Notes: generated from the sequence alone by a model not told the origin. A DNA stretch of 64,000 bases from an uncultured Acidobacteriaceae bacterium (GCA_964600355.1 CAZRKW010000001.1:1856-65855); one strand, 5' to 3'. Numbered from the stretch's first letter, positions 24,503 to 62,666 are shown. Numbers and translations: made by a program.

Positions 24503-24505
24503 GGC

Positions 24506-31273: not shown

Positions 31274-31312
31274 GCTAGCTTCCCATGAACCTGAATGCTG
31301 TTTGCTCAACAG

Positions 31313-31771
31313 CTAAGTTTGTATCGCCGCGACTTCGCTGGTCTCCGCCACCTGGCAGGCTTTTTCGGTGTCGAGCACGTGCAGGAGGCGGTCGTCGAGT
31401 TTGTGGACGCCGAGAATTACCGTGCGGACCATGCCGCGCAGGGTTTCCGGCGGCGGCTCAAACGAGTCTTCCTCGACTTCGACCACATCTCCAATCTGAT
31501 CGACCAGCAGACTCACGGCGCAATTTTCGCTGCGGACCACTACGTTCATGGGCTGGGCCTCGCCGGGACGCGGCGCAATGTCGAGGCGCTTGCGCAAGTC
31601 GATGGCGGTAACGATCTGGCCGCGCAGGTTGATGAGGCCGCTGACTACTCCCGAGGAGAGCGGGACGCGCGTCACCTCCAAAAAGCGAATGACTTCCTGA
31701 ACGTCGGTGAGCTTCACGCCGAAGAGCAGGCCGTCGAGGTAAAAGGTGCAGAATTGGAGTTTTTGGGCCAT
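31313..31771 (-). CDS. cheW: Chemotaxis coupling protein CheW
   Basis: 152 aa with a FYLDGLLFGV....V.EV......T.VP......V.G.INLRG.IV..IDLR pattern. Confidence 0.9.
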   Translation of the reverse strand: MAQKLQFCTFYLDGLLFGVKLTDVQEVIRFLEVTRVPLSSGVVSGLINLRGQIVTAIDLRKRLDIAPRPGEAQPMNVVVRSENCAVSLLVDQIGDVVEVEEDSFEPPPETLRGMVRTVILGVHKLDDRLLHVLDTEKACQVAETSEVAAIQT

Positions 31772-31779
31772 GAGCTTAC

Positions 31780-34029: not shown

Positions 34030-34212
34030 TCCGTTCACTTTTGAAACTGATCTGTTTGACGGGGCGGAGTTGCTCCGCCGCGAGGATGGCGTGACGCTGT
34101 TCTCGCGGCCGGGAATTCCGCCGGACGTATTCCTACTGTGTATCGTCCCAGGGTGATTCTTCTTTAGGAGGGCGGAGCTCAGCCTCAATGCGTGCCGCGG
34201 ACGAGATTCGGT

Positions 34213-35505
34213 CTATCGCAAAGCCCCGAGTTGGAAATTGAGGGCGGAGGTTTGCGCTTCGTAATCGTATTTGGCGGAGGCTTGCTCAATCTGTGCCTGT
34301 GTCAGATTAAGCTGAGCCTGACTGAGTTCCACGATGGAGCTGAGACCCAATTTATAGCGCGACTGCGCGAGATCGAGTGCGTCACTTGCTTCGGCGAGGA
34401 GTTTGTCAGTGACCGAAAGGCGCTGAAAAGCCGAGTTGGCGTTCAGCCAAGCCATCTGAACGTCGCGGACGATACGGTCCTGCAAGGCGCGCAGGTATTG
34501 ATTCTCGGCGCGGGCACGAGCAGCAGCCTCCGACTCCAACGCCGAATACAAGTGACCGTTGAAGATCGGAATGTTGACGTTGAATCCAGCAGCGGCGTAT
34601 CGCGGACCCAGGGGAAATTCAGCGTACGGCGTAAGTCCCGCGACGCCCAGGGCGGAAATGGTGGGAAAACGCAGATCACGCTCCGCCGTGGCATAGTTCT
34701 GCGCTGACTGGACGTCCAGGCGCTGGCCAATCATTTCCGGGCGGTCTCTGAGGGCCTGCTGGATCAGCGGAGCGACGTCGGCAGGTGGCGGAGGGGGAAG
34801 AGACTCATCGGCCAATTGAAAGGTCCGCTGATCCGAATAGCCGAGGGCTTCCGAAAGCTGAGCGTAAGAAGACTGCAGATCGTCTCGCGCCTGAATTTGC
34901 AGCAGCTGCGATTGGGCGAGATCCACGTTGGCGAAGCTGACATCCAAACCGGACTTGATCTTGTTCTTCGCCAACTCGGTGATCTGGTCAGAAACGAGCT
35001 GGCGCGACTGGACGGTTTGATCCGCGACCGTGAGAACGGCTTGAGCGCGCAATACCGCGTAAAAGGCCCCGTCAACCTGCAGAATAACGCCAGCTCGCGT
35101 GGTAACGACGTTTTCCTGCTGGGCCTGCGCGCGCTGATCCGAGCTCCTGACGAGTTCGTGGGTGCGGCCGAAATCGGTGAGGAGCTGGCTGACAGTGAGG
35201 CCGTTTGAATAGCGCTCATAGATGATCGGGTTATTCAGACCGCCGGCCGCGATGCGGCTGTTATGCTCCCCGTCCACTCCGGTTAGGCTGCCGTAGACGG
35301 TTGGGTAATATGCCGAGCGGGCTTGCGTCACTTGCGCCTGGGCGGCCGCGGCCAAATTCGCGGCTGCCTGGATCTGAGGGTGATTCTGAATCGCGATTTG
35401 CTCGGCTTCACGGAGACTCAACGTTTGAATTGCTTGTCCGGCGGCGGCCCCTGAGACAATGGTGGTGAAAACCACGAGCGCGAAAAGTCGAATTCGGATC
35501 CTCAT
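34213..35505 (-). CDS. TolC-family outer membrane efflux protein
   Basis: Signal peptide MRIRIRLFALVVFTTIVSGAAAG, and a duplicated OEP repeat pattern with Q/A/L-rich coiled helices. The ATG at 35505 overlaps the stop of the upstream RND gene by 4 nt (ATGA). The longer track N-terminus lies inside the RND gene. Confidence 0.85.
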   Translation of the reverse strand: MRIRIRLFALVVFTTIVSGAAAGQAIQTLSLREAEQIAIQNHPQIQAAANLAAAAQAQVTQARSAYYPTVYGSLTGVDGEHNSRIAAGGLNNPIIYERYSNGLTVSQLLTDFGRTHELVRSSDQRAQAQQENVVTTRAGVILQVDGAFYAVLRAQAVLTVADQTVQSRQLVSDQITELAKNKIKSGLDVSFANVDLAQSQLLQIQARDDLQSSYAQLSEALGYSDQRTFQLADESLPPPPPADVAPLIQQALRDRPEMIGQRLDVQSAQNYATAERDLRFPTISALGVAGLTPYAEFPLGPRYAAAGFNVNIPIFNGHLYSALESEAAARARAENQYLRALQDRIVRDVQMAWLNANSAFQRLSVTDKLLAEASDALDLAQSRYKLGLSSIVELSQAQLNLTQAQIEQASAKYDYEAQTSALNFQLGALR

Positions 35506-38500
35506 CGGGCTTCCTCCGTGACAGCGGGCGCCTGGAACTCCGCGCGGCGCTGGTAGATCAAAAGATATGCGGCGGGAACCACAAAAATTGTAAGGACAAC
35601 GGATACGGTGAGGCCGCCGATGATCACCCGTGCGAGAGGAGCGTAAGCCTCGCTCCCCGATTCCAGTTTCAGCGCCATAGGCAGAAGGCCGACGATGGAG
35701 GCAAGCGACGTCATCAAGATGGGACGTAAGCGTAACCGGCACGAGTGGGCCACCGCGCTGCGAACGTCGCGGCCTTCCAAACGGAGGCGATTTGCAAAAT
35801 CGACGATCAAAATGCTGTTGGAGACCACCATACCCGTGAGCATCACGATTCCCATGAGCGATTGAATATTGAGTGTGGTGTCGGTGAAAGCCAGCGTGAG
35901 GATCACCCCGATGAGGCCGGTGGGAACGGCGAGTACGATCAAAAAAGGGTCGATGAAGGACGCGAACTGGGCGACCAGAACGAGGTAAACCAATAGAACC
36001 GACAAGAGCAATCCAAAACCAAAGCTCCGGAACGAGGAGTTCATGGTGGCGATCAAACCGCGAATGTTCACGCGAATGTTCGGCGGCAGGCGCTCGGCGG
36101 CGACGATCTTCGCGATTTCCTTCGAAGGCCGGCCAAGGTCCTCGGCAGCGGGCGCGACATATACGTCAATTGTGCGCTGCAGTTGATAGTGGTCTACTTC
36201 GGTGGGACTTACGGTTGGGGTGACATCAGCGACCTGATTTAAGTAGGTAGGAAGCTTCAGGGCCGGGGCGCGCAATGGCATCGTCTTCAGATCTTCGAGG
36301 GTCTTCACCTGATTTTCCGGATACTGCACGGTGACGAAATAATTGTTGCCGCTCTTCGGGTCGACCCAGTAGCTAGGCGCAATCATCGCATCGGAAGTGA
36401 GCGCTGTAATCAGGTTGCCAACAACTTCCCTGGGACTAAGGCCGAGCTGGCTGGCTCGCTCGCGATTGACGTTCACTTGTAAAGCGGGATAGTCCATATC
36501 CTGCGGAATGTAAACATCCGATACTCCGGGCAGAGCTTTGATCTGGCGCGACAAATCCAGAGCCAGGGCGTCGGCGGCTTCCAAGTCACTCCCGCTCACC
36601 TGCACATCGATGGGCGCCGGCATTCCCTGGTTGAGCACGGAGTCCACGAGTCCGCCCGATTGGAAGTACGTTCGCAACTCCGGCAGCTGGGCAGAAACCC
36701 GCTTTCGAACTTCGTTCATGTAGACAAAGCTGCCGACCTTGTGTTCTTCGTTGAGACCGACCTGAATGAAGGCAGTGTGCATGCCGGAGTTGGGAGTGGT
36801 CAAAGCGGAGAGATCGGGAGTCAATCCAATATTCGATACGACGGCATTGAGGTCACCCGGACGAATGACATCGCGAACGATGGCTTCCACCTTTTCCACA
36901 TAGGCTTCGGTGATCTCTAATCGAGTGCCAGTGGGCGCCTTCACGTTAATGATGAACTGGCCCGCGTCCGTGCGTGGAAAAAACGAAACTCCGATCAATG
37001 GATAGAACGCGAAGGCCAACAGAAACACGCCGATAAAGGCGAAGGTAAACTCTTTTGGGCGATCCAGGACTTTTTGAATCAAGCGGTCGTACGCGCCGAG
37101 CATGCGTTCGAAGCGAGCGTTAAACCAGCCGTGGAATTTTCCCGCCCAGGATCCAGCCGACGCGTGGGACGGCTGATCTTCCACGTTATGGGCCAGCTCG
37201 CGAAGCATCTTTGCGCAGTAGAGCGGCACAACCGACACCGCAACAAAATAGGAGGCGAACAGCGAAATCACAACAGCGAGCGCAAGAGCGGTGAAGAGAT
37301 ATTTGCTGACTCCGAAGAGCAGCGTGACCGGAAAAAAGACCACAACGGTAACGATGGTGATGGCCAGCACGGCGACCGAAACTTCGTTGGCGCCCACCTC
37401 CGCGGCCACGAGGGGGGACTCGCCAAGTTCGAGATGGCGGAAGATATTTTCCAGAACGATCACGGAGTTGTCTATCAAGCGGGAAAAGGCCAGAGCCAGG
37501 CCGCTGAGAACCATGCTGTTAATCGTTTCGCCATCCATGTGGAGCAGAAAAACGGTGGCCATCACCGAGAGCGGAATGGAAAGGAACACGGCCGCGGTCG
37601 CGCGAAGGCTCCCGAGAAAAATCAGGATCATGACTGCGGTGAGCAGCAACCCGATCCCGCCCTCCCGCAGAACCGTCGAAATCGCCTGCTTGACGAAAAG
37701 GGACTGGTCGAAAACGACGTGCGTTTTTAACTGAGCCGGGATGTCGCGCAGGTCCTTGATTGCCCTTTCAATACCACTGACGACGGCAATCGTGTTTGTG
37801 TCGCCGCCCTGTTTCAGAATCGGATCGTAAACGGATCGCTGTCCGTTGACGCGGACAATATTGTATTGCAGGGCCGCTCCATCGACGGCCTTGCCAACGT
37901 CAGAAACAAATACGGATCTATCGCCCTCGGTTTTCAGAGGGATGTCGTTGAGCGCCTGAGGGCTCGGTACCTGGGCATTGGTGTAGAGGTTGTAATCCAT
38001 GGCACCGATGCGGACATCCCCGGCGGGCAAGATGAGATTGGATTCATCCGTGGCGCGAACCACATCCATGGGGCTCAGCTGATTTGCCTGGAGCTTCAGG
38101 GGGTCAACATACACCATGATCTGCCGATACTTGCCGCCGTAAGGAGGGGGCACGGTGGCGCCCGGAACACCCGCAATCTGGTTGCGAATCGCAAATTGAA
38201 GGTAGTCGTGCAACTGAGTTTCGTCGAGTCCCTGGCCTTCCACAGTCAGCAAGCAAACGGGAAGGTTCGAGGCGTCCATACTCATGACAACCGGCGGCAA
38301 GGTGCCTTGCGGCAGGCGACGCAGATCCGCCATTGCGAGATTGGAAATCTGCGTAACGTCGGCATTGGCGGAAGTGCCCGGCTGGAAATAAATTTTGATG
38401 AGGCTCACGCCTGCCATGGACCGCGACTCCATGTGGTCAATACCGCTGCCCAAGGTGAAGAACCGCTCGAAGGTGTCAGTAATATCCGCCTCGATCTGCT

Positions 38501-38663
38501 GAGGCGGCATGCCACTATAAAATGTGGCCACCATGACTACGGGAATGTTGATCGGCGGAAACATATCCACCGGCATCTGAACGAGACCTGAAAGGCCCAA
38601 CACACAGACGAAGAGACAGATCACAACGATGAAATACGGATATTTCAAGGAAAATGAAGGCAT
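35502..38663 (-). CDS. RND efflux permease (AcrB/CzcA superfamily), second system
   Basis: 1053 aa, N-terminus LKYPYFIVVICLFVCVLGL, two large periplasmic loops, 12 TM helices and conserved IDNSVIVLENI. Confidence 0.95.
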   Translation of the reverse strand: MPSFSLKYPYFIVVICLFVCVLGLSGLVQMPVDMFPPINIPVVMVATFYSGMPPQQIEADITDTFERFFTLGSGIDHMESRSMAGVSLIKIYFQPGTSANADVTQISNLAMADLRRLPQGTLPPVVMSMDASNLPVCLLTVEGQGLDETQLHDYLQFAIRNQIAGVPGATVPPPYGGKYRQIMVYVDPLKLQANQLSPMDVVRATDESNLILPAGDVRIGAMDYNLYTNAQVPSPQALNDIPLKTEGDRSVFVSDVGKAVDGAALQYNIVRVNGQRSVYDPILKQGGDTNTIAVVSGIERAIKDLRDIPAQLKTHVVFDQSLFVKQAISTVLREGGIGLLLTAVMILIFLGSLRATAAVFLSIPLSVMATVFLLHMDGETINSMVLSGLALAFSRLIDNSVIVLENIFRHLELGESPLVAAEVGANEVSVAVLAITIVTVVVFFPVTLLFGVSKYLFTALALAVVISLFASYFVAVSVVPLYCAKMLRELAHNVEDQPSHASAGSWAGKFHGWFNARFERMLGAYDRLIQKVLDRPKEFTFAFIGVFLLAFAFYPLIGVSFFPRTDAGQFIINVKAPTGTRLEITEAYVEKVEAIVRDVIRPGDLNAVVSNIGLTPDLSALTTPNSGMHTAFIQVGLNEEHKVGSFVYMNEVRKRVSAQLPELRTYFQSGGLVDSVLNQGMPAPIDVQVSGSDLEAADALALDLSRQIKALPGVSDVYIPQDMDYPALQVNVNRERASQLGLSPREVVGNLITALTSDAMIAPSYWVDPKSGNNYFVTVQYPENQVKTLEDLKTMPLRAPALKLPTYLNQVADVTPTVSPTEVDHYQLQRTIDVYVAPAAEDLGRPSKEIAKIVAAERLPPNIRVNIRGLIATMNSSFRSFGFGLLLSVLLVYLVLVAQFASFIDPFLIVLAVPTGLIGVILTLAFTDTTLNIQSLMGIVMLTGMVVSNSILIVDFANRLRLEGRDVRSAVAHSCRLRLRPILMTSLASIVGLLPMALKLESGSEAYAPLARVIIGGLTVSVVLTIFVVPAAYLLIYQRRAEFQAPAVTEEAR

Positions 38664-38672
38664 GCCAGACTC

Positions 38673-39929
38673 CTATTCCGAACCCGATGCGGTAGCAGGC
38701 TGCACGATCTGAGGTGCAACCAGCTCGCCCGTTTTGAATTGCGACTGCTCTCCAAATACGACGAGTTCATTTTCCCCAAGTCCTGAAATAATTTCGGCGT
38801 CGGTAGCGCTTTGAAGCCCCAGGCGGACATCACGTCTTTCGATGCGTTTCTGTCCGTCCACGACGAGCACGGTGCCTCGCCCGTCCCCTACGCTCTGCAC
38901 TGCCTGAAGCGGCACGGTCACGACGTCTTGCACGGTGTGCAGGGGAACACGGACGGTGGCGTACATTCCGGGGACCAAGGTGTATTGGGGGTTGGGGACG
39001 TCGATTTCGGTATACATCGTGCGCGTCTGGGTATCGATCTGGTCCGAGAAGCGGGCAATCTTGCCCTCGAAGGTTTTGTCATTCGTGGAAACGTGGACGG
39101 CAACCGTTTCACCCAGATGGACATCTCCGACGGCTCGTTCAGGCAGGGGAATTACAAGCCGAAGAAGGTCATTCTGCGAGAGGCGGCAGAGGGCTTGATC
39201 GCCCTTGTTCGAGGAGGTTCCGGCTGGAAGAAGCGAGCCGGTATAAGAATCCATTTTGGTGACTACACCGTTGAAAGGGGCGGAGATTCGCGCATAGGCA
39301 TACATGGCCTTGTCCTTTTCGAGCGACGCTTTGGATCCGATCAAGGCCTGCTCGGCTCCGGCGACGGCATCTTTCGCGGAGGAAACGCCTGCGTTGGCTT
39401 CCAGGTCTTTCCCTTGAGCCTGGTCGATTTCCTCCTGCGCTACGAGTTCAGGACGGGTCTTCTGCACGTCCGCAAGGCGGGTATAGGTAAGGTGGGCAAC
39501 ATTGTAAGCGGATTGCGCGCGGGTTAATTCCTCGTTCGAGCGCGCGAGGTCTTGTTCACTGCGTCGGACGGCCGATTCATCAAGTTGAAGCTGCTGCTGT
39601 AGTTCCGGGATTTCCAGGACCGCGAGGAGCTGCCCTTGAGTTACGTGGGTTCCCCAGTCGATATAAAGCTTCTGGATATAGCCGGAGACCTTGGCGTAAA
39701 CATCGATTTCCTGGAACGGTTGGAATTCCGCGGCGATTTCAAGGGTATTGGAGATGCTGCGGCGAACGGCTTTGACAACCGCTACCCTCGGTGCGCTCGA
39801 TGGATCGTCGGCGCGAACCTTCTGTCCCGACCCGCAGCCGCAGAGTGCAAGCAGCAGAAGTGCGAGCGGCAAAGCATCCAGGCGCATCCGAGTTCTCGCA
39901 GTCTGTCCCATACATAACTTCTCTTTCAT
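38673..39929 (-). CDS. RND efflux periplasmic adaptor (HlyD/MFP family), lipoprotein
   Basis: Lipobox LALCGCGS, the pattern VSGYIQKLYIDWGTHVTQGQLLAVLE, a coiled-coil hairpin and a beta-barrel domain. The start is chosen at MKEKLC (the Met codons at 39911 or 39887 are alternatives). The 5-prime track extension to 40301 is Arg/Ser-rich and not protein-like. Confidence 0.85.
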   Translation of the reverse strand: MKEKLCMGQTARTRMRLDALPLALLLLALCGCGSGQKVRADDPSSAPRVAVVKAVRRSISNTLEIAAEFQPFQEIDVYAKVSGYIQKLYIDWGTHVTQGQLLAVLEIPELQQQLQLDESAVRRSEQDLARSNEELTRAQSAYNVAHLTYTRLADVQKTRPELVAQEEIDQAQGKDLEANAGVSSAKDAVAGAEQALIGSKASLEKDKAMYAYARISAPFNGVVTKMDSYTGSLLPAGTSSNKGDQALCRLSQNDLLRLVIPLPERAVGDVHLGETVAVHVSTNDKTFEGKIARFSDQIDTQTRTMYTEIDVPNPQYTLVPGMYATVRVPLHTVQDVVTVPLQAVQSVGDGRGTVLVVDGQKRIERRDVRLGLQSATDAEIISGLGENELVVFGEQSQFKTGELVAPQIVQPATASGSE

Positions 39930-40012
39930 AAAGTCACCTGGCGTTGGATTAAAAAACACTTCGAGACGAAGGCCCCTTACATGGAAATTCCCGATTGTGA
40001 AAAACGGTTGAG

Positions 40013-40378
40013 TTACGGGCGTGCGGCGGGGGGAGCGCGAAGCTGTTTCGAATCGATAAAACAGAGCTGAACGATGGGAGGCGGAGCGGCGGCCCGGTCC
40101 ACCCGAATCGCGCGCATGGGCGGTTGCGGTGTAAAGAGCAGAGCAGCAGGTTGCAGGTGATCTCCGGCAAAAAGCACCGGAGCGTGAGCCACATTCATCT
40201 TGGTGGAGATGGAAACGTAATGAGCGGCGCTCGTCTCGGGAAAGTACTGGCCAGTCTTGGCCATGGTGGCGAGGCCCGCGACGGCCAGGAGAAGGGAACA
40301 AATAATAAATCGCGCGAGAAGGCTCTTGGCGAGCGTTGTGAAGGAGTCGAATATCGCCGTTTTTGTTTCCAGCTTCAC
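40013..40378 (-). CDS. Hypothetical small membrane-anchored/secreted protein upstream of RND operon 2
   Basis: 121 aa with a GTG start and one hydrophobic segment (LLARFIICSLLLAVAGLATMA). Third-position GC is roughly 70 percent by my manual count, which is coding-like. I recognise no family. Confidence 0.3.
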   Translation of the reverse strand: MKLETKTAIFDSFTTLAKSLLARFIICSLLLAVAGLATMAKTGQYFPETSAAHYVSISTKMNVAHAPVLFAGDHLQPAALLFTPQPPMRAIRVDRAAAPPPIVQLCFIDSKQLRAPPAARP

Positions 40379-52653: not shown

Positions 52654-52856
52654 GTGCGTTGACACACTCCGGCTGTTTTGTTATTCAGCTCGTTTGTCTT
52701 AATATGGCCAGGGTTTGAATACGGTGATCTAGCCGCCGCCTGGGCTTATCGAAAAGCAATCCAAAGGTGATAATGACGAGTCCGAAGGTTTATGCCCGCA
52801 CTGGCGGGAAATCCGCGAAGGTCGGCGGCGCGCACGACCAGGGGTTTGGCGGTTGG

Positions 52857-55589
52857 ATGAGGGTGCGGGAATCTCTCTTAGCTCTGCTGGTTATCTGCTG
52901 CGGAATCTTTCTGCTGTCGGGATGCCACAGCGGCTCCGCGGGCATCACGGTGCAGATACTGCCCAACAGCACGGTCTCGCTGGACTCGGGGCAAAGCTAC
53001 AACTTTACGGCGACCGTCGCCAACGACATTCACAACCAGGGCGTTACGTGGAGTCTGACTCAGACGACCAGTTGCTCGGGAAGCGGATGCGGCACGCTGA
53101 GCAAGGTGACCAATTCTTCGGTCACCTACACCGCGCCTTCCAACCTTACGGCAGCCTTGTCGGTTACTCTTACCGCGGCATCCGTATCTCAGACCAGCGC
53201 CACTACGACCGCAACGATCAGCATTGCTATTCCCGTGACTTTCACAACGACCACCCTGCCGAATGGCGCCAATGGTGTTCCTTACAACCAGTCCATCACG
53301 GTCACGGGAGGAGTGACTCCGCTTACGTTCTCGCTTCAGTCCGGCACATTTCTTCCACCAGGTCTGGCGTTGAATTCCACCGGAAGCATCGTGGGAAAGC
53401 CGACCGCTCCCACGGTAGGCCAACAGATGACCACATCTTCCTTCACTGTGGTAGTCACAGATAACGGTACACCTCCCGTGGCGGTGAACGAGCCGTATAC
53501 GATCTCGGTTACGCCGCCGCCAGTGCTCGCGATTACGTCCACTTCCGTAAAAGCCGCGGTTACCAATACAACGTACGCCGCTCAAGTGGCGACGACCGGC
53601 GGCGTTTCGCCGTTAACGTGGACCCTGCTGACGGGAACCGGCGCCGCGCCTTTCAACACTTTGCCGCCTGGTCTCGGCCTGGGGACGAATTCCGGCCAGA
53701 TTACGGGCGTGGTGCCGCAAGGTACGGCGGTGGGAACCTACAATTTCAAGGTGCAGGTGCAGGATTCGTCGCTGCCGTCGGCGCAGTCGTTGCAGCAATC
53801 GCTTTCGATCGTTGTTACGACACCACAGCCACTGACCATCTCCTCGACCGTGCTGCCGACAGGCACCACGGCCACCGCGTATAACGCCTCTTTGCAGGCG
53901 GCGGGCGGGATTACACCGTATGTGTGGACAGTGACCAGCGGCCAGCTTCCCTCGGGTCTCACACTCGGGCCGGATGGGACCATTTCAGGGGTCCCTGTGC
54001 TGGCTACAACGTCACCGAACAATTTCACAGTCAAAGTGACGGATTCGGAAGTGACTCCGCAAACCTTATCGCAAGCCCTGAGCATTTCGATCACGGCTGG
54101 CAGCACGAGCGGCGATTCGCTGATCAATGGCTCTTATTCGTTCCTGTTTAACGGATTCGATTCCAACGGATCGGTGGCCATCGCGGGTTCGATCGCAACC
54201 GACGGGAACGGCAACATTACCTCGGGAGAGGAAGACAGCAACCGGTCGGGAACCAATAACCTGATCACCGCAATCCCGCTGCTGGGATCCTACTCGCTGG
54301 GATCGGACGGCCGCGGAACGATGGAACTGGTCGCTTTCAACCCGAGCACGCACGTAAGCCTCACCACCGATTACCGGATCGTGCTCGATTCATCCGGCAC
54401 GATTCATTTCATCCAGAATAACGACATCACCACCGTCGGCGTGGGCACCGATACCCTCGGCACGCACGGCGAGGGCATCATGAAGCCCATTGTGGGAAGT
54501 TTCTCGGGCGTCAGCTTCAATGGAAACTATTCGTTCCTGTTCGCCGGACAGGACACGAGCGCCAAGCCCGCAGCGCTTGCCGGAGCGATCCGCGCCGACG
54601 GCAACGGCAACATCAACCCCGCGGCGGGAGGCGTCAGCAGCGATTTCAACGATAATGGCACTATCAGCTCGCAGAATATTTCGGGCACCTTTTCCGTGGG
54701 AGCCATGAACAATCGCGGTACCGCTGAATTTCTTTTCCAGATTCCCGGAAAATCGGCGAGCACGCTGCAATTTGCGTTCTATTTCGTCACACCCCTGGAT
54801 ATTTATTTTGTGGAGACGGACAGTTCGACCACCGCTCTTTCTCCCGTGTATTACCGGCTGAGCGGCGAAATGATCGCCCAGAATTCCAGCTACGCGTTTT
54901 CGAACAGCTCCCTTTTGGGTACCAGCGTGGTGAGCGGAAGCGGATCGAACGGCAACAACGCGAGCGTTCTGGCGGGCTTGCTCACGTCCACAGCGGGAGC
55001 CGGAGCCGCCACCCTGACGTATGATGAAAACAATGGGGGCGCGATCACGTCTCCCTCGCCAAGCTTCAGCGGAGCCTATTCAGTGGCGGGGAATGGCCGC
55101 ACGCCGTTCACCAGTCTCGGGTCGCGTGCCGCGGTGGCTTACCTAACCGGTCCGGGCCAGGGCTTCTTACTCGGCGGCGATGCCGCGGTAACCACCGGCC
55201 TGCTCGAACAACAATCGGGCGCTCCTTTTGCTACTTCGTCTGTGCAGGGCGGGTATACGATCAGCACATCTTTGCCCGTGGAAACCAAGGTTCCAAACTT
55301 GCTGGGCCAGGTCAGCTCGGACGGCGCAGGCAGCGTGACGGGCATCGTGGATGAAATCGATCCTCCAGTCACGGCCACACCTGAGGGCAAGGCGAATTTG
55401 AACCAGTCCTTGATCGCGCACATCAACTTTATCGGCACAAACGGCCGGGGAACAGCCACGACGAATTCGCCTACCGGGATTCCGGCCACGATGATCTTCT
55501 ATTTGGTGTCCCCGGCGCATTTCCGGGCGATCTCGGCGGATTCGAACCCGGGCAATAGCCACCCGGACGTGCTTTTCTTTGACCACTAG
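52857..55589 (+). CDS. Large surface lipoprotein: three Ig-like (putative-Ig, cadherin-like) repeats plus four copies of an unrecognised ~110-aa module
   Basis: Lipobox LLSGC. There are three ~95-aa repeats with the pattern LP.G..G..Y...(L/V).(A/T)(T/G)GG(V/I)(T/S)P(L/Y).(F/W)(S/T)(L/V)....LPPGL.L...G.I.G.P. These are followed by four repeats of the type G.Y.F...G......A.AG.I..DG.G.I......D.N..G.......G.Y.V...GRG. The start is placed at the Met preceding the lipobox. Confidence 0.75.
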   Translation: MRVRESLLALLVICCGIFLLSGCHSGSAGITVQILPNSTVSLDSGQSYNFTATVANDIHNQGVTWSLTQTTSCSGSGCGTLSKVTNSSVTYTAPSNLTAALSVTLTAASVSQTSATTTATISIAIPVTFTTTTLPNGANGVPYNQSITVTGGVTPLTFSLQSGTFLPPGLALNSTGSIVGKPTAPTVGQQMTTSSFTVVVTDNGTPPVAVNEPYTISVTPPPVLAITSTSVKAAVTNTTYAAQVATTGGVSPLTWTLLTGTGAAPFNTLPPGLGLGTNSGQITGVVPQGTAVGTYNFKVQVQDSSLPSAQSLQQSLSIVVTTPQPLTISSTVLPTGTTATAYNASLQAAGGITPYVWTVTSGQLPSGLTLGPDGTISGVPVLATTSPNNFTVKVTDSEVTPQTLSQALSISITAGSTSGDSLINGSYSFLFNGFDSNGSVAIAGSIATDGNGNITSGEEDSNRSGTNNLITAIPLLGSYSLGSDGRGTMELVAFNPSTHVSLTTDYRIVLDSSGTIHFIQNNDITTVGVGTDTLGTHGEGIMKPIVGSFSGVSFNGNYSFLFAGQDTSAKPAALAGAIRADGNGNINPAAGGVSSDFNDNGTISSQNISGTFSVGAMNNRGTAEFLFQIPGKSASTLQFAFYFVTPLDIYFVETDSSTTALSPVYYRLSGEMIAQNSSYAFSNSSLLGTSVVSGSGSNGNNASVLAGLLTSTAGAGAATLTYDENNGGAITSPSPSFSGAYSVAGNGRTPFTSLGSRAAVAYLTGPGQGFLLGGDAAVTTGLLEQQSGAPFATSSVQGGYTISTSLPVETKVPNLLGQVSSDGAGSVTGIVDEIDPPVTATPEGKANLNQSLIAHINFIGTNGRGTATTNSPTGIPATMIFYLVSPAHFRAISADSNPGNSHPDVLFFDH

Positions 55590-55717
55590 ATTGGTTTGTA
55601 GTGCAACGGGCGGAAGGATGCCGACGTTTATAGGCTTGGCCGCGCGAACTTCAAATCACCGGCTGCACACTAGGGTCATCCTCGAGGTTATCGCGAAGCC
55701 ATAAAGAGCGAGCAGAT

Positions 55718-56143
55718 TTATGCTTTTTTCTTGCCTTGGTCTTCGTCTTCTTTCTCGACCAATTGAAGCGCCGCGGAGTTAATGCAGAACCTCAATCCTG
55801 TGGGCTGGGGTCCGTCCTCAAATACGTGCCCGAGGTGCGCGTCGCACCGGCTGCATAGAACTTCCGTGCGGGCCATCCCGTGGCTGGCATCGCGCTCCAT
55901 CTCCACATTTTCCGCCGCGATCGGCTGCCAGTAGCTGGGCCAGCCGGAACCCGAGTGGAATTTTGCTTCGGAGCTAAAAAGCGGCTGTCCGCAGCAGACG
56001 CAGACATAGGTGCCTGGAGTCTCGGTATCTTCATATTCGCCCGAGTAAGGGGGCTCGGTGCCCTTTTTTCGCGTTACGTGAAATTGATCTTCGTTCAGCT
56101 GGGATCGCCATTCCGCATCGCTTTTTCGAATTTTGTCGCTCAT
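55718..56143 (-). CDS. msrB: Peptide-methionine (R)-S-oxide reductase
   Basis: Both Zn-binding CxxC pairs ([21 protein letters not shown]), GWPS, and the catalytic RFCINS. Confidence 0.95.
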
Positions 56144-56291
56144 GCCTCTAGGTTACTATCAGCCGCGGGAGGCGTCCAGATGAGCCTCGATCGGTCGCGT
56201 GGTTCTCGCCTCCCGTGTTATTTGCCACGGTAAGGAAAATCTAATGCGTCCTGCCCCGGTATGGTGTTAAATTCCGCATAGAGGAAGGCTT

Positions 56292-56825
56292 TTGCTTAAA
56301 CCCCGATTCTTCGCCGTCTGCACGCTCGGCCTCCTGCTGGTTCTTTCGGCTGGCGGGGCGCTGGAGGGGGCTCGGTTACTCGCGAATTCCGCGGGTTCGT
56401 GGAATTCCCATGCCATCGAAAGCACGCTCCAGGGAGTGCGCGTTCGCGAGATCGATCCCACCCGGGCAGAAATCGTGTTTCTCTACGATCTCGAGAACAA
56501 AACCGACAACGACTACCTGCTCTCCAAGGGGCCGGCCGTTGTAATTATGAGCCGCCTGAAATCGTCGGGCAGCCTGAGTTCGGAAAAGCAGGTCACGCTG
56601 AATTCCGGCGCTTTTGTGCCGGCAAGAAACCGCACCCGCATAGAAATCGCGATCACCCAGCCGTTCCGCTGGCCTTCGCGGATGGATGCAGCCGGGCAGA
56701 TGCGGATACGGGAGTTGGTGGCGGGTGAGGTCGCAGACCTCGGGGGATTCGCCCTGTTCGACCAAGGGACGCGCTATCAGATCGACTTACCTGGCGCCTG
56801 GCCGGAGATCGAAAAGGCTCCGTAG
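56292..56825 (+). CDS. Hypothetical secreted protein
   Basis: TTG start and a signal-like N-terminus FFAVCTLGLLLVLSAGGA. 177 aa; I recognise no family. Confidence 0.4.
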   Translation: MLKPRFFAVCTLGLLLVLSAGGALEGARLLANSAGSWNSHAIESTLQGVRVREIDPTRAEIVFLYDLENKTDNDYLLSKGPAVVIMSRLKSSGSLSSEKQVTLNSGAFVPARNRTRIEIAITQPFRWPSRMDAAGQMRIRELVAGEVADLGGFALFDQGTRYQIDLPGAWPEIEKAP

Positions 56826-56983
56826 GGTTCCGACAAGGTATCGCGGGCCGGTCCTTGCCCTCGCACTCGGCCCTTGAGGTCTGCGTTTGCGCTCTTGCAT
56901 TATGGCGAATATCGGGCGAACATAGGCTGCCGCGTCGAAGAAAATGCGGACCCCCTCCCGCATCAAAGGAACCGATTTAGGAA

Positions 56984-58555
56984 ATGTCCCAGGTCTCCGC
57001 ACACGTAGACGGAAGCAAACAGGGTTTCGATCGCCGTGTGCACGCGCGCCGGTCCGTGCGCTCCCTCGCCTATGTCGAATTGGGCGAAGGGAACGGAGGA
57101 ATCGTACTCAACGTCAGCGAAGGCGGAATCGCCGTACAGGCCGTCATGAGCCTGCTCGGCGATGAATTGCCGGCCGTGCGGGTCCAGCTTTCGCACTCGA
57201 AGAAAAGCATTGAAGCAAGAGGGCGGATCAGCTGGACGAGCGGCCTTCGCAAGACCGCGGGGCTCGAATTTGTCGGGCTTTCGCCGGAGGCTCGCAGCCT
57301 TCTGCGCGAATGGGTAGCGATGGAAACCCCAGCGGGCGACTTGATCGAGGAGATGACCTCGCCCATCGAGAAAAGCTCCCTCGAAGCCGCGGCGCCGCCT
57401 CCAACGGAAGCAGCGAAATTGGACTTGAAACGCGGATTCGCTTTGTCGCCGGCTGAAAAGCCAAGCAAGCTTACGGAATCGCTGTCGGTGGCGAAGGAAG
57501 AAGTCGCCGAACCTTTTCCCCTGCGCCGGATGTCTCGCACCTTAACTGATATCGACGCCATTCCTGCTCCCCCTGTGTTGTCAGTTCCGGCCACGCCGGC
57601 CGAACCCACGGTGAATGTATCTGTGGCGGCGACAGCGCCGTCCGCATCGCAAGCCGCCGAGGCTGACTCGGTTGGCTTGCTGCATTCTTCCGCCTCCTTG
57701 CCAGACGACCGTTTTGGGTTCAAGCAACTTAGCGCCTTGTCGGGCTCGCCAGCGGCTACCCCTGCGGAGGGTCGCTGGAAAATGGCGAAGCTGGTGGCCA
57801 TTTTTGCGGGAGTGTCTCTGGCCGCGGGCTGGTTTGCCGGACACGGCGCGTTGCATGGGAAGTTCGGTAAAGCCACGAAGGAAACCTCTAATTACGCTGT
57901 TGCGGCCGAAAATCCCGAAGTGGCGCCTCCGGGCAAACCAAACATTTCCAACATCGAAGTCGTCGATTTGAATAACCAGCATTGGCTGATCCCGATGCAA
58001 GGTCCATTGGGACCGCCGCGGTCTTCAACCGGGCAAGGCTCGAGCAGCTCTTCGGAGCAAGTGCAAAAGAGCCAGTTGAAATCGGACGTCCCGCTGCCGA
58101 CACCCGAGCATGCGAAAAACCAAGTAACCGGCGGCGAGGATAAGGCGAGCAGCCCCTTGCTGAATCCCACTTCCGGCGGCCCGGAAAGCGTCTTGTCCGG
58201 GAGCGCCGCATCCAATTCGCAACCGGTAGTTCCACTTCCGACCCCGGCAGCGGCTGCTGATGATCCGGAAGCCAAGAACCTGCGGTCCGGCGAATTAATC
58301 CACCGCGTTGACCCTGTCTATCCCCCCAGCGCGCTGGCACAGGGCATCGACGGCACGGTCACGCTGTATGCCGTGATAGCCTCTGACGGTACAGTGAAAA
58401 ATTTGCAATCGCTGGATGGTCCCCCCGCGTTGGTTCCCGCGGCATTGGCCGCGGTTCGGCAGTGGCGTTACAGCCCAAGCCTTCTCAACGGACGGCCGAT
58501 TCAAACGGAGAGGCAGATCAAGATCCACTTCGAGCTCTCTCCGCCCCCGCAGTAG
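56984..58555 (+). CDS. PilZ domain - transmembrane - TonB C-terminal domain fusion protein
   Basis: The N-terminus carries both c-di-GMP-binding PilZ motifs: RVHAR (RxxxR) and NVSEGG (D/N-x-S-x-x-G), at nt 57035-57127. There is a single TM (LVAIFAGVSLAAGWFAG) near residue 270 and a Pro/Ser-rich linker. The C-terminal 80 aa (LIHRVDPVYPPSALAQGIDGTVTLYAVIASDGTVKNLQSLDGPPALVPAALAAVRQWRYSP.LLNGRPI) have the TonB_C pattern. Confidence 0.75.
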   Translation: MSQVSAHVDGSKQGFDRRVHARRSVRSLAYVELGEGNGGIVLNVSEGGIAVQAVMSLLGDELPAVRVQLSHSKKSIEARGRISWTSGLRKTAGLEFVGLSPEARSLLREWVAMETPAGDLIEEMTSPIEKSSLEAAAPPPTEAAKLDLKRGFALSPAEKPSKLTESLSVAKEEVAEPFPLRRMSRTLTDIDAIPAPPVLSVPATPAEPTVNVSVAATAPSASQAAEADSVGLLHSSASLPDDRFGFKQLSALSGSPAATPAEGRWKMAKLVAIFAGVSLAAGWFAGHGALHGKFGKATKETSNYAVAAENPEVAPPGKPNISNIEVVDLNNQHWLIPMQGPLGPPRSSTGQGSSSSSEQVQKSQLKSDVPLPTPEHAKNQVTGGEDKASSPLLNPTSGGPESVLSGSAASNSQPVVPLPTPAAAADDPEAKNLRSGELIHRVDPVYPPSALAQGIDGTVTLYAVIASDGTVKNLQSLDGPPALVPAALAAVRQWRYSPSLLNGRPIQTERQIKIHFELSPPPQ

Positions 58556-58616
58556 CTTCCATTCCTCGTCGTAACCGTCCGCCTAAACTCCCACCCTGTT
58601 TCTACCGATAGTTTCA

Positions 58617-59540
58617 ATGAGTTCCCTTATGTCTGAATTGGAAAGTTCCGAGATATTTCGCGTGGTTCTGGAGAACCTCCAGACGGGGGTCTACTTCGTG
58701 GACCGTGACCAGAAGATTCTCTTCTGGAACCAGGGCGCGGAGAAGATTACGGGCTATCTGCGGCAGGAAGTGGTCGGATGCTTTTGCCGGGACAATATCC
58801 TGGCGCTCGGCGACAGCAATAAGAGTGTGCTGGCAGACGCAGCCGAGTCGATCACTGGGGTGCTGCGTGACGGCAAGGCGACAATCTCCGAAGTATCGCT
58901 TCGACACAAGGCAGGGCACCGAATTTTCGTCCGGCTCCGAGCTGTTCCAATTCGGAACGCCCATGGCACGATCATCGGCGCCGCCGAGAGTTTCGACGAA
59001 AGCCTGTCCGCATCCGATTGGGACCGCCGCCAGAGACGACTCGCCGATTATGGCTGCCTGGATGAAACGAGCGGAGTCCTGAGCAAGGGTGTGACGTTGG
59101 CGCATCTTCGCGAAAATCTGGCCACCTTCGCGGAGCACCGTGTGCCTTTCAGCATCCTCTGCATTGAAGTGGACCAAATGGACCACATGCGGGCGACCTA
59201 TGGCCTGGCGGTATTGGGCTCTATCCTGCACGTGGTGGGACAGACGATCGAAAACAGCCTGCGGCCTACCGATTTTCTCGGGCGCGTTGCGGAGAATCGT
59301 TTTCTCGCGATCCTCACCGAATGCGGCCCAGCGGACATCGAAAAAACGGCCCGGCGCGTGAAGAAAATGGTAAGCACATCGGAAATCAAATGGTGGGGCG
59401 ATGAGTGGTCGGTAACGGCTTCGTTTGGGGGTGCCACCGTTCAGACGGGCGACACCTGCGAATCCGTGCTGGAGCGCGCGGAAAAATCGCTCGCCGAAAG
59501 CATCGCGTCGGGCGGAAACCACGTCCACGTCGCGGCCTGA
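58617..59540 (+). CDS. PAS domain protein with a degenerate GGDEF domain (A-site AENRF, I-site RPTD retained)
   Basis: PAS region (YFVDRDQKILFWNQGAEKITGY...) followed by a GGDEF-fold region. The GG(D/E)EF position reads AENRF (nt 59289-59303) and an RxxD motif sits 5 residues upstream (RPTD, nt 59262-59273). Upstream metal/GTP residues also differ from consensus (EVDQMD..R.TYG). Confidence 0.8.
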   Translation: MSSLMSELESSEIFRVVLENLQTGVYFVDRDQKILFWNQGAEKITGYLRQEVVGCFCRDNILALGDSNKSVLADAAESITGVLRDGKATISEVSLRHKAGHRIFVRLRAVPIRNAHGTIIGAAESFDESLSASDWDRRQRRLADYGCLDETSGVLSKGVTLAHLRENLATFAEHRVPFSILCIEVDQMDHMRATYGLAVLGSILHVVGQTIENSLRPTDFLGRVAENRFLAILTECGPADIEKTARRVKKMVSTSEIKWWGDEWSVTASFGGATVQTGDTCESVLERAEKSLAESIASGGNHVHVAA

Positions 59541-59570
59541 AAATCTCGCGTCACCGGAGGCGCTTTTCGG

Positions 59571-60452
59571 ATGTTCACGATTATTGGAGTTGTCGTTGTA
59601 TTCGGCGCGGTCCTTGCGGGCTACCTTATGGAAAAAGGCCCGCTGGCGGTGCTCATCCAACCGGCCGAGCTGATTATCATCCTGGGCGCGGCGATCGGAA
59701 CGGTGCTGATTGCGAATCCTCTGCATATCCTCACAAAAATTGGCGGAGGCATTGCGGGTGTTTTCGGCAGCTCTCCGTTCACGAAACAGCGCTATCTCGA
59801 TTCGCTCAAGATGATGTACGAGATCTTTGGCCGCGCGAGGAGAGATGGAATGATGGCGCTCGAGGCCGACAGCGATGCCCCGGACAAGAGCGTGGTCTTC
59901 TCGAAGTACCCCGCGTTCCTCAAGGACCATCACGCGCTGGCGTTTGTCTGCGACTCGATTCGCATGGCTTCCAGCGGAAGCATCGAGCCCTTCGATGCCG
60001 ACCAGATGATCGAGCTCGACATGGATGTGCACCATCACGAAGCGACGCTGCCCGTGGCGGCGTTGTCGACCATGGCCGATTCCCTTCCCGGATTGGGGAT
60101 CGTGGCGGCGGTGCTCGGCGTAGTTATCACCATGGGCGCTCTCGGGGGACCGCCGGAAGAAATCGGCAAGCATGTGGCGGCGGCGCTGGTTGGAACGTTT
60201 CTCGGCATCCTGATGTGCTACGGGCTGGTGGGGCCGATCGCCGCGAATATGGCGAAAACGGCGGACGAAGAGCATGCGTATTACAACGTGCTGCGCGTGC
60301 TGATTATCGCGTTCATGAAGGGATCGGCGCCCGTGCAGGCGGTGGAATTCGGACGGCGCGCGATTCCGGGCCATGTCCGGCCTTCGTTTCAGGAGACCGA
60401 AAAGTTCATTCGCGAGAAGTCGGCCGCGCCGGCCGAGGCGGCTGCGGCTTAG
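59571..60452 (+). CDS. motA: Flagellar-type stator protein MotA (proton channel subunit)
   Basis: 293 aa and collinear with E. coli MotA as I recall it: the N-terminal TM pair, then DSLPGLGIVAAVLGVV, ALVGTFLGILMCYG and APVQAVEFGRRAIP...RPSF.E.E. GGAGG lies 10 nt upstream of the ATG. Confidence 0.9.
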   Translation: MFTIIGVVVVFGAVLAGYLMEKGPLAVLIQPAELIIILGAAIGTVLIANPLHILTKIGGGIAGVFGSSPFTKQRYLDSLKMMYEIFGRARRDGMMALEADSDAPDKSVVFSKYPAFLKDHHALAFVCDSIRMASSGSIEPFDADQMIELDMDVHHHEATLPVAALSTMADSLPGLGIVAAVLGVVITMGALGGPPEEIGKHVAAALVGTFLGILMCYGLVGPIAANMAKTADEEHAYYNVLRVLIIAFMKGSAPVQAVEFGRRAIPGHVRPSFQETEKFIREKSAAPAEAAAA

Positions 60453-60479
60453 AAAGCCCGCTGTCCGCGCACAAATCCT

Positions 60480-61325
60480 ATGGCTGCCAAACCGATCATC
60501 GTCATCAAAAAGAAGGGCGGCCACGGCGGGCATCATGGCGGTGCGTGGAAGGTCGCCTACGCCGATTTCGTGACGGCGATGATGGCGCTTTTCATCGTTC
60601 TCTGGCTCTTGAACAGCAGCAAGAAGATTCAGGACGCCGTGGGCGGCTACTTTCGCGATCCTCATGGCACGGCGGACAAGGCCGGCAAAGATATCGTCGG
60701 CTCGGCGGGAGGTTCGATCGTCCCGCATGACAATATGGAACAGCTCAAGAAGCAGTTGGAGAAGGCTATCAGCGGCGTCCCCAATTTCGACAAACTGAAA
60801 AGCCACATCGAAATGACGGTCACCCCAGAAGGCTTGCGTATCGAGCTCTTGGAGGCCGATACGGCCCACGGAACATTTTTCGAGAGCGGAAGCCCGAAGC
60901 TCAGTTCCGATGGACAGGACATTGTCGTGGTTCTCGCGCAACAGCTGGGGAAGCTGCCGAACAAGCTCACGGTCGAAGGCCATACGGACGCGAAGCCCTA
61001 CGCAAACTCGAGCGCCTACGGGAACTGGGAGCTCTCCGCGGATCGCGCAAATTCGGCGCGCCGCCTCATCCAGCAAAATGGCGTGCAGCCTGACCAGGTG
61101 ATGCAGGTGCGAGGCTACGCGGATCAGAAATTACGCAAGCCCGATGCACCGCTGGACCCTTCTAACCGGCGAATATCGCTGATCGTCCATTATCTCGATA
61201 CGCCGGACGGCAAGAAGCAGGATTTCAGCGGGCTCACCGGTGCGACCGCCGCTTCGTCCGCTCCAGGTGCGGCAACTGCTGCCCAAGAGCGCGCTCCGCT
61301 TCAAATCGGCCCCTCCCACCACTGA
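60480..61325 (+). CDS. motB: Flagellar-type stator protein MotB (OmpA-like peptidoglycan-binding C-terminus)
   Basis: AWKVAYADFVTAMMALFIVLWLL contains the channel Asp in the conserved YADF.TAMMAFF context. The C-terminus has GHTD..P........NWELSADRA...RR and NRRISL. Confidence 0.9.
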   Translation: MAAKPIIVIKKKGGHGGHHGGAWKVAYADFVTAMMALFIVLWLLNSSKKIQDAVGGYFRDPHGTADKAGKDIVGSAGGSIVPHDNMEQLKKQLEKAISGVPNFDKLKSHIEMTVTPEGLRIELLEADTAHGTFFESGSPKLSSDGQDIVVVLAQQLGKLPNKLTVEGHTDAKPYANSSAYGNWELSADRANSARRLIQQNGVQPDQVMQVRGYADQKLRKPDAPLDPSNRRISLIVHYLDTPDGKKQDFSGLTGATAASSAPGAATAAQERAPLQIGPSHH

Positions 61326-61460
61326 GCCACCGCCTTAGCAACGCTAATACGTGCGAAAGCCTCGTTCATTCAGCCTTAATAGATGGACGTTAGCTTCGTG
61401 TAGCGGGGATTTGATCGACGGGTACCGCGAGCCGAATTGATAGTCTGCTAGGATGAGCGT

Positions 61461-62666
61461 GTGAGCCCCGATGTGCCAGGCCGCGATGGCGCCCGAATAC
61501 TCACGATGAATCGCGGCTCGTCGAGCTTGAAAGCTGCGATCTACCGGGCGGCCGCGGACGAGAAATTGGAGCTGTCCATTCAAGTGGACCGCGCGGACTC
61601 CTCCGGCGGCCACGTGACCATCACCGATGCCGGCGGAAAATCATTGCTGGATACGGCAGCTGGGCATGAAGATTCTGACGCGGCCTTAAACATCGTGTTC
61701 GACTGGCTGGCAAAACAAGGCTACCTCGGGAACGTGGCTGCGGCAGGGCACAGAATCGTGCATGGCGGCACACGATTCACGGAGCCACAGCGCGTGACGC
61801 CCGATTTTCTGACAGAGCTTAAGACGCTGGCGCCGCTCGATCCCGATCACCTGCCCGAAGCGATCGCGGGAATCCGGTTTATCGCGCGAAGACTTCCGCA
61901 GCTTCCTCAAATCGCGTGCTTCGATACTGCCTTCCACATCGGGCTTCCCACCGTGGCCCGCATGTACGCAATTCCGCGCCCCCTTTACGACGAAGGCATC
62001 CGGCGCTATGGCTTTCACGGGCTTTCCTACGAATACGTCCTGCAGCAACTGCGCGCGATGGACGACGGCCTGGCCGAGGGACGGGTGATCATCGCGCATC
62101 TGGGCAATGGCGCCAGCATGGTGGCCCTTCGTGGAGGCAAAAGCGCGGACACCTCGATGGGCTTCACTCCCCTCGAAGGGCTAGTAATGGGCACGCGCTC
62201 GGGGGACGTGGATCCCGGGGCGCTCATTTACCTGCTGCAGCAGAGGAAAATGCCTCCCGGGGAGCTGGGCGAGCATCTAAACAAGCGCTCGGGACTGCTG
62301 GGGGTTTCCGGTTCGAGCGAAGACATGCGCGATCTGCTGGCGAAATCTCCTGGCGATGTTCACGCCGCGGAAGCCGTCGAACTGTTCTGTTACCGCGCCA
62401 AAAAATATATCGGGGCCTACGCGGCAGCCTTGGGCGGACTCGATCTGCTCGTCTTCACCGGCGGCATCGGCGAACACGCAGCTCCGGTGCGCGACAAGAT
62501 CTGCGCAGGCCTGGAATTTCTCGGCATTCAACTTGACGCTCCACGCAACCACTCCAATGCACCGCTCATTTCATGCGCGGACGCCGCAGTAAAAGTGCGC
62601 GTCATCGCAACCAATGAGGACCTGATGATCGTCCGGCACGTTCGCGCCGCGCTTGGCTGGGCCTGA
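61461..62666 (+). CDS. ackA: Acetate kinase
   Basis: [16 protein letters not shown] (N.GSSS.K), [31 protein letters not shown], and EDMR with GGIGE near the C-terminus. GTG start. Confidence 0.9.

Follow-up and report, generated by a model that had tools for sequence, protein, structure and literature searches.

The window analysed here, a 64,000-nucleotide stretch of DNA from an uncultured Acidobacteriaceae bacterium (GCA_964600355.1 CAZRKW010000001.1:1856-65855), contains a run of genes that we label g0 (encoding a protein of 177 amino acids, aa), g1 (a PilZ-TonB_C protein), g2 (a PAS protein with a degenerate GGDEF domain), g3 (motA) and g4 (motB). Judging from the sequences and their genomic contexts, we consider it fairly probable that g2, motA and motB form a conserved acidobacterial stator operon with a dedicated, soluble, PAS-gated receptor for cyclic di-GMP (c-di-GMP), and that g0 and g1 belong to a separate unit.

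Linkage of g2 to motA and motB

The g2 gene (58617-59540, plus strand) is an open reading frame (ORF) of 307 aa in which Pfam recognises a PAS domain (aa 14-122, nucleotides (nt) 58656-58982) and a degenerate GGDEF domain (aa 149-301, nt 59061-59519). According to gene callers and to the alignment of orthologues, the protein begins at Met5 (58629) and has 303 aa; this is probably the true start, in which case the gap to g1 is 73 bp. The pentapeptide GGDEF is replaced by AENRF (nt 59289-59303), and an I-site, RPTD (residues 216-219, nt 59262-59273), lies five residues upstream of it. Downstream on the same strand are motA (59571-60452, 293 aa), with the Pfam domains MotA_N and MotA_ExbB and four transmembrane (TM) segments, and motB (60480-61325, 281 aa), with MotB_plug (60.1 bits) and OmpA (58.9 bits) domains and Asp29 (nt 60564-60566) inside its TM segment. 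The arrangement of g1 to g4 given in the first-pass annotation, namely four plus-strand genes with intergenic gaps of 61, 30 and 27 bp and their domains and motifs, was recovered throughout by ORF calls, Pfam and NCBIfam matches and motif search.

We then compared g2 with its orthologues, which are about 303 aa long, 56-99% identical and much better conserved than the g1 family. In an alignment of 24 orthologues R216, P217 and D219 do not vary, and the RxxD I-site was present in 94 of 95 orthologous loci, at its conserved position five residues upstream of the GGDEF site, as in degenerate GGDEF receptors. GG[DE]EF was found in none of the 95, its place being taken by at least 29 different non-catalytic pentapeptides. 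The residues expected of a diguanylate cyclase for GTP binding are also missing: where the active cyclase DosC has its guanine-binding Asn and Asp, g2 has R and G, respectively (DosC DvDkFKeiNDtWGHntGDeiL aligned to g2 EvDqMDhMRAtYGLavLGsiL). Since the I-site is invariant while catalytic and GTP-binding residues are lost and variable, the pattern fits a predicted receptor for c-di-GMP and not an enzyme. Also conserved across the orthologues are the PAS domain and a WWGD motif specific to the family. A LOV-type (light-oxygen-voltage) PAS, suggested by a weak YtvA match, was rejected, the Cys of the corresponding 'FCR' motif not being conserved across orthologues.

The position of g2 next to motA was examined in 84 further g2 loci, 80 from a metagenome scan and four on long contigs. 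In all 63 informative loci motA lay directly downstream of g2, and motB followed motA in 46 of 51 loci. The four long contigs, which differ in flanking genes, all showed the order g2, motA, motB. The link of c-di-GMP to the stator that had been proposed for this locus thus held for g2 and failed for g1, the gene on which the proposal had laid its emphasis (adjacent to g2 in 5/52 loci).

Nine loci that form one subclade (L139, L143, L147, L151, L154, L157, L165, L166 and L168; for example L157 7944-9323) carry an intact g2 with its I-site, 68-92% identical among themselves, followed by a stub of motA. The stub ORF (116-135 aa) comprises MotA_N residues 1-77 and a short unrelated tail; the rest of motA is missing from these loci, and motB is absent from all nine. 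The stub is under purifying selection, with median ratios of non-synonymous to synonymous substitution (dN/dS) of 0.07-0.18 and, for the MotA_N part, of 0.07 at a synonymous divergence (dS) of about 0.9. Because the stub is kept under purifying selection beside an intact g2, the pair of g2 and the MotA N-terminus appears to persist without the rest of the stator at the locus, which points to the first two MotA helices as the part relevant to g2. The tail, of about 40 aa, is itself conserved and resembles the end of a receiver domain, and the gene after the stub in L157 looks MurJ-like from its translation.

The MotA and MotB proteins of the window were assigned to the flagellar type. MotA matched the NCBIfam model TIGR03818 ('MotA1') with 370.5 bits, above the equivalog cutoff of 303.8, and its PDB matches were all flagellar MotA; no ExbB or TolQ structure matched it at E<=1e-3 in the PDB search. 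In its cytoplasmic loop the stretch ARRDGMMALE has its aligned counterpart in ARREGVLALE of a MotA of solved structure, and the conserved segment, ARRxGxxALE, presumably holds the equivalents of E. coli MotA Arg90 and Glu98. The periplasmic domain of MotB matched the crystallised MotB C-terminal domains 2zvy and 2zov at about 1e-25, and the protein has the plug, the TM Asp29 and the OmpA-like peptidoglycan-binding domain of a MotB; as a whole it scored 223.6 bits against NF006548, below the equivalog cutoff of 277. A plug and an OmpA-like domain in the B subunit also set the pair apart from ExbB/ExbD and TolQ/TolR. By family and structure matches g3 and g4 are thus a MotA/MotB flagellar stator of the MotA1 type (the E. 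coli-like, proton-driven class), which bears out their initial identification as a MotA/MotB pair. A 2025 stator phylogeny places acidobacterial stators within flagellar clades (PMC12505986).

Separation of g0-g1 from the stator genes

The boundary between g1 and g2 behaved differently from that between g2 and motA. A PilZ-TonB_C gene was directly upstream of g2 in five of 52 loci; in eight a g1-like match lay within 8 kb upstream, non-adjacent, and in the other 39 none was found within that distance. Two of the four long g2 contigs have no PilZ-TonB_C gene within 10 kb, and another has an opposite-strand pyrroloquinoline quinone (PQQ) dehydrogenase gene between g1 and g2. The same convergent gene, of about 620-650 aa, separates g1 from g2 in L089 (7933-9789, annotated as a PQQ/cytochrome c dehydrogenase), L092 (1934-3898) and L097 (4465-6321), in each case on the minus strand.

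The closest genome, locus L001, provides a natural deletion. MsrB, g0, g1 and AckA are there in the order of the window (99%, 92%, 83% and 93% identical, respectively), and g2 to g4 are gone from the locus. The deletion is in frame and runs from g2 codon 7 to about MotB codon 233, so that MSSSMS, from the g2 start, is joined to IVRYLDTPDGKKQDSSG from the MotB end. This scar (L001 11642-11760; equivalent to window 58617-58634 and about 61180-61325) comprises g2 codons 1-6 and roughly the last 45 motB codons, and leaves a remnant ORF of 43 aa between g1 and ackA. In other assemblies a g2 orthologue that is 86% identical (P0127) has the usual four genes around it, which speaks neither for nor against a relocated copy of g2-motAB elsewhere in the L001 genome. 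Comparison of the window with the L001 lineage gave dN/dS values for g1 of 0.016 in the PilZ domain, 0.09 in the TM segment, 0.14 in TonB_C and 0.6-0.74 in the linkers.

The order MsrB, g0-g1-g2-motA-motB-AckA-XFP is kept in full in the window's clade (g2 at least 84% identical). On comparative grounds the adjacency of the four genes is thus best described as synteny inherited within one clade, and its g1/g2 boundary tolerates insertion and deletion; the g2-motA boundary was unbroken in all loci sampled. We conclude that g0-g1 and g2-motA-motB are very probably two separable units. The idea of g1 to g4 as one module accordingly gives way to two units, and conservation of the neighbourhood among relatives speaks for the g2-motAB link and against a g1-motAB link. 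In two loci genes of this region are split into fragments (motB at L171 9880-10686; ackA and xfp at L170 10814-14588), which may reflect assembly frameshift errors or real pseudogenisation.

The g1 gene (56984-58555, plus strand, 523 aa) encodes a cytoplasmic PilZ domain (Pfam, 33.3 bits against a cutoff of 22.5; aa 16-112, nt 57029-57319), an A/S/P-rich linker, a single TM segment (aa about 267-288, nt 57782-57847), then, in the periplasm, an S/P-rich linker and a TonB_C domain (Pfam, 65.3 bits; aa 444-518, nt 58313-58537). The PilZ domain has both c-di-GMP-binding-type motifs, RVHAR for RxxxR (residue 18, nt 57035-57049) and NVSEGG for D/NxSxxG (residue 43, nt 57110-57127), and R17, R18, R22, N43, E46 and G48 are invariant across 19 aligned family members. 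Both the PilZ gene and the GGDEF gene thus carry motifs of the c-di-GMP type, as had been noted at the outset, and their invariance in the family alignments argues against chance matches in either protein. V442, P444, Y446 and P447 (the TonB YP motif) are likewise invariant, and the best PDB match of the TonB_C domain was Vibrio TonB2 (2k9k, 1.3e-9), followed by 6i97, 6fip and 1xx3, chains deposited as 'Protein TonB'. With 13% Pro in its linker, g1 has the proline-rich spacer, the TonB_C domain and the YP motif of a TonB transducer. No conserved His was found in the g1 family alignment, unlike in the N-terminal TM anchor (SHLS-type) that couples TonB to ExbB/ExbD, and the TM segment lies behind a cytoplasmic region of 260 aa and not at the N-terminus.

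The combination of PilZ and TonB_C was found in at least 187 protein clusters and gave 581 confirmed matches in a scan of species-representative reference genomes. The carriers are nearly all metagenome-assembled genomes (MAGs) of Acidobacteriota (Acidiferrales, Terriglobia), with multiple paralogues per genome; L004, L032 and L052, for instance, come from one MAG. In the family alignment A1, P0060 and P0097 have a duplicated N-terminal PilZ domain and P0051 a second, TonB_C-like C-terminal extension. We found no paper that describes the two domains together, and a preprint surveying PilZ proteins does not mention TonB.

Neighbours of g1 were collected from 79 loci of reference genomes, searched by tblastn with the window genes. 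The top neighbour cluster was g0, directly upstream of g1 homologues in 36 of the 79; g2, MotA and MotB were downstream in only two of these 36 (L002 and L075). Response regulator and kinase genes, a He_PIG surface protein and housekeeping enzymes also recurred, and a TonB-dependent-receptor-like protein was among the neighbours in six loci. Unbiased clustering of the genes up to 5 kb away from these 79 loci returned no recurrent ExbB/ExbD-like cluster, a result to be read with the frequent separation of tonB from exbBD. In the window g0 (56292..56825, plus strand, 177 aa) precedes g1 and starts with a signal or anchor helix followed by a beta-sandwich, as in its AlphaFold2 (AF2) model (pLDDT 87.4). 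It has no Pfam match, and its 69 family clusters are all named hypothetical. Against the PDB the model gave generic beta-sandwich matches alone (E >= 5e-3, TM-score about 0.3), and because these are generic and weak no function can be assigned to g0.

The He_PIG protein, an Ig-repeat surface protein of about 940 aa (window 52767-55589), lies upstream of MsrB-g0-g1 and shares synteny with them in many loci (cluster 3, 15 loci, including L001, L080-L086 and L170-L172); it could be tied to an envelope role of g0-g1. The best reading of g0-g1 is that of an independent, c-di-GMP-responsive TonB-like envelope unit, putatively anchored in the inner membrane and provided with an exported beta-sandwich partner. 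The simplest guess for the output of this unit would be an inside-out link, from c-di-GMP to a partner in the outer membrane or the wall.

Two roles previously suggested for g1 have to be weighed against these data. In one, g1 would be a membrane-anchored YcgR-like brake on MotAB and the four genes a single module, as the canonical, invariant PilZ motif and the contiguity of the genes in the window's clade might suggest. However, g1 homologues accompanied by g0 are followed by motAB in 2/36 loci, convergent genes are inserted between g1 and g2, and strong constraint on g1 has continued after the loss of motAB in L001. Moreover, g1 has no PilZN (YcgR_N) domain, Pfam recognising PilZ and TonB_C alone; it is not a soluble protein, its C-terminal half being periplasmic; and several g1 paralogues occur per genome. 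Because g1 is only a clade-specific neighbour of the stator genes and was retained after their deletion, the suggestion loses its main support; synteny largely refutes it and we regard it as very improbable. The second role, in which g1 is a TonB-like transducer driven by the MotAB channel and outer-membrane transport so comes under c-di-GMP control, is hardly credible. MotAB and ExbBD are homologues, and g1 does have a canonical TonB_C domain with an invariant YP motif and TonB matches in the PDB, but MotA scores above the flagellar equivalog cutoff and has no PDB matches other than flagellar stators, and MotB has the plug and peptidoglycan-binding domain of a flagellar MotB. The g1 family is almost never found beside motAB and never beside a recurrent ExbBD-like pair, and it departs from TonB in the position of its TM segment and in the missing His. 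The flagellar type of MotA and MotB thus disfavours this suggestion.

A candidate mechanism for g2 at the stator

We propose, as close to an even call though slightly short of one, that g2 acts on the stator as a regulator that depends on c-di-GMP. Dimeric c-di-GMP would be bound by g2 at the I-site, and a cue sensed by the PAS domain would be integrated by the same protein. The loaded protein would then dock on MotA, probably on the N-terminal two-helix segment or at the start of the cytoplasmic loop, and alter the engagement or torque of the stator, as a GGDEF-type counterpart of PilZ brakes or clutches such as YcgR. What the analysis observed is the gene linkage, the conserved motifs, the lost catalytic residues, the flagellar type of MotAB and the separability of the two units; binding of c-di-GMP, contact of g2 with MotA and the sign of the effect are inferred from sequence and synteny.

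Several points weigh against this proposal. The linkage counts are conditional on g2, having been sampled at g2-bearing loci, and an RxxD motif alone is no proof of c-di-GMP binding. Because g2 survives in a subclade that lacks full motAB at the locus, it may have a stator-independent role. As for the separateness of the units, in the window's clade all four genes remain side by side, their gaps are short and no terminator could be detected, so that in the organism of the window g1 may share a transcript with g2-motAB. A scan of 55500-62000 returned no sigma-70-like promoter, and terminator-like matches in the same interval (7, against 6.7 in shuffled sequences) were uninformative on operon boundaries.

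Other roles for g2 fit part of the same evidence. It might report the state of the stator outward, as an adaptor recruited by engaged or disengaged stators that signals to active cyclases or effectors in surface sensing, a scenario that we find unlikely but deserving of attention. Signalling from stator to c-di-GMP is established in P. aeruginosa, in which MotC binds and stimulates the cyclase SadC (10.1101/483339), and in Caulobacter CmrA, a degenerate GGDEF/EAL protein, changes its location with the state of the stator and motor and works through PleD (10.64898/2026.08.21.746235). The strict linkage of g2 to motA and the retained MotA_N stub would suit a docking adaptor just as well, and synteny appears equally compatible with such an adaptor and with a receptor that acts on MotA. 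An outward-reporting g2 would, however, need a separate output partner because it cannot itself make c-di-GMP, and no such partner was conserved in the neighbourhood on the four long contigs; the invariant I-site, moreover, suggests that c-di-GMP is the input. A structural or assembly function, with vestigial nucleotide binding, is the more improbable of the two. It would resemble that of FlgX, a Campylobacter protein of PilZ fold that is reported to bind stator units at their cytoplasmic region and to stabilise them (PMC11725899), and a subunit-like role would agree with the operonic position of g2 and its 1:1 linkage to motAB. Against it, the nucleotide-handling surface drifts except at the I-site, which is invariant, and this argues for selection on c-di-GMP binding; the conservation of the PAS domain favours a role in regulation.

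Genomic surroundings, related systems and significance

Elsewhere in the window, a chemotaxis cluster on the minus strand (30176-34188) consists of cheB (30176-31309), cheW (31313-31771) and a cheA-cheW fusion (31780-34188), with a LuxR-type response regulator gene (29315-29971, minus strand) beside them; it suggests that the organism is motile. The initial remark that no other flagellar gene lies in the window thus stands for structural genes, none of which were found among the ORFs scanned in the 64 kb, but overlooks this cluster. ExbB, ExbD, TolQ and TolR were likewise absent from the window ORFs scanned. Two operons for resistance-nodulation-division (RND) efflux, with OEP, AcrB-type and HlyD-type genes (19896-25705 and 34213-40301, minus strand), flank the chemotaxis cluster. 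An 820-aa antisense ORF runs across g2-g4 (58614-61076, minus strand) and is most likely an artefact of high G+C, since the plus-strand genes have strong family matches.

The role proposed for g2 is that of the PilZ effectors YcgR (E. coli/Salmonella), MotI/DgrA (B. subtilis), FlgZ (Pseudomonas), PlzD (Vibrio) and MotL (Shewanella), soluble c-di-GMP receptors that act on stator or rotor and slow or disengage the motor. These are PilZ proteins, often with PilZN, whereas g2 joins a dead GGDEF domain with an I-site to a PAS domain and is strictly operonic with motAB; to our knowledge PilZ motor effectors are generally not the first gene of a motAB operon. PopA, PelD and SgmT are degenerate GGDEF receptors for c-di-GMP and share with g2 an inactive GGDEF domain whose RxxD I-site is kept as the ligand site. 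We know of no case in which these proteins, or CmrA, sit in a stator operon. CmrA is the nearest to g2 in theme through its functional tie to MotAB and motor state (10.64898/2026.08.21.746235), but it is a GGDEF-EAL protein with a DxxD variant of the I-site that acts via PleD on adhesion, and co-encoding with motAB is not described there. SadC of P. aeruginosa is also a GGDEF protein tied to the motor, binding the stator protein MotC; unlike g2 it is an active, membrane-bound cyclase stimulated by the stator. CbrR of C. jejuni, again a GGDEF protein, binds c-di-GMP at an autoinhibitory site and represses motility, but has response-regulator domains and lowers flagellin expression. Location in a motAB operon is described in neither the SadC-MotC nor the CbrR report. 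In the literature searched we found no description of a dead GGDEF gene in motAB operons, a 2026 review of motility suppression includes no GGDEF-type stator effector, and a search on motility in Acidoferrales/Acidiferrales gave nothing relevant.

For g1, E. coli TonB offers the same plan of a single TM segment, proline-rich periplasmic spacer and canonical TonB_C domain. GltG and GltJ are TonB-like anchors of the Myxococcus gliding machine, and GltJ adds cytoplasmic regulatory domains to TonB_C. From all of these g1 differs by its roughly 260 cytoplasmic residues with a PilZ domain, the lack of a conserved TM His and the lack of linked motor genes of the ExbBD or AglRQS type.

What is known of the control of flagellar motors by c-di-GMP comes almost wholly from PilZ proteins of Proteobacteria and Firmicutes. 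If the proposal for g2 is true, a motAB-linked PAS protein whose GGDEF domain retains only the I-site would represent a second class of receptor at the stator and open a first way into the control of motility in Acidobacteriota, a phylum that is abundant in soil but has hardly any genetic models. Natural variants supply ready-made experiments, in the deletion of g2-motAB in a sister lineage and in the subclade that keeps g2 with a MotA N-terminal stub. Only tentatively do we put forward the joint picture, in which g2 would be a new class of motor effector, a stoichiometric, operon-encoded partner docking on the two-helix N-terminus of MotA and gating stator engagement in response to c-di-GMP at the I-site and to a PAS cue, and the large PilZ-TM-TonB_C family of Acidobacteriota would supply the first envelope transducers of TonB type under direct c-di-GMP control. 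That family, with its protein clusters spread over hundreds of species genomes, raises the idea that envelope and outer-membrane processes may be wired directly to c-di-GMP.

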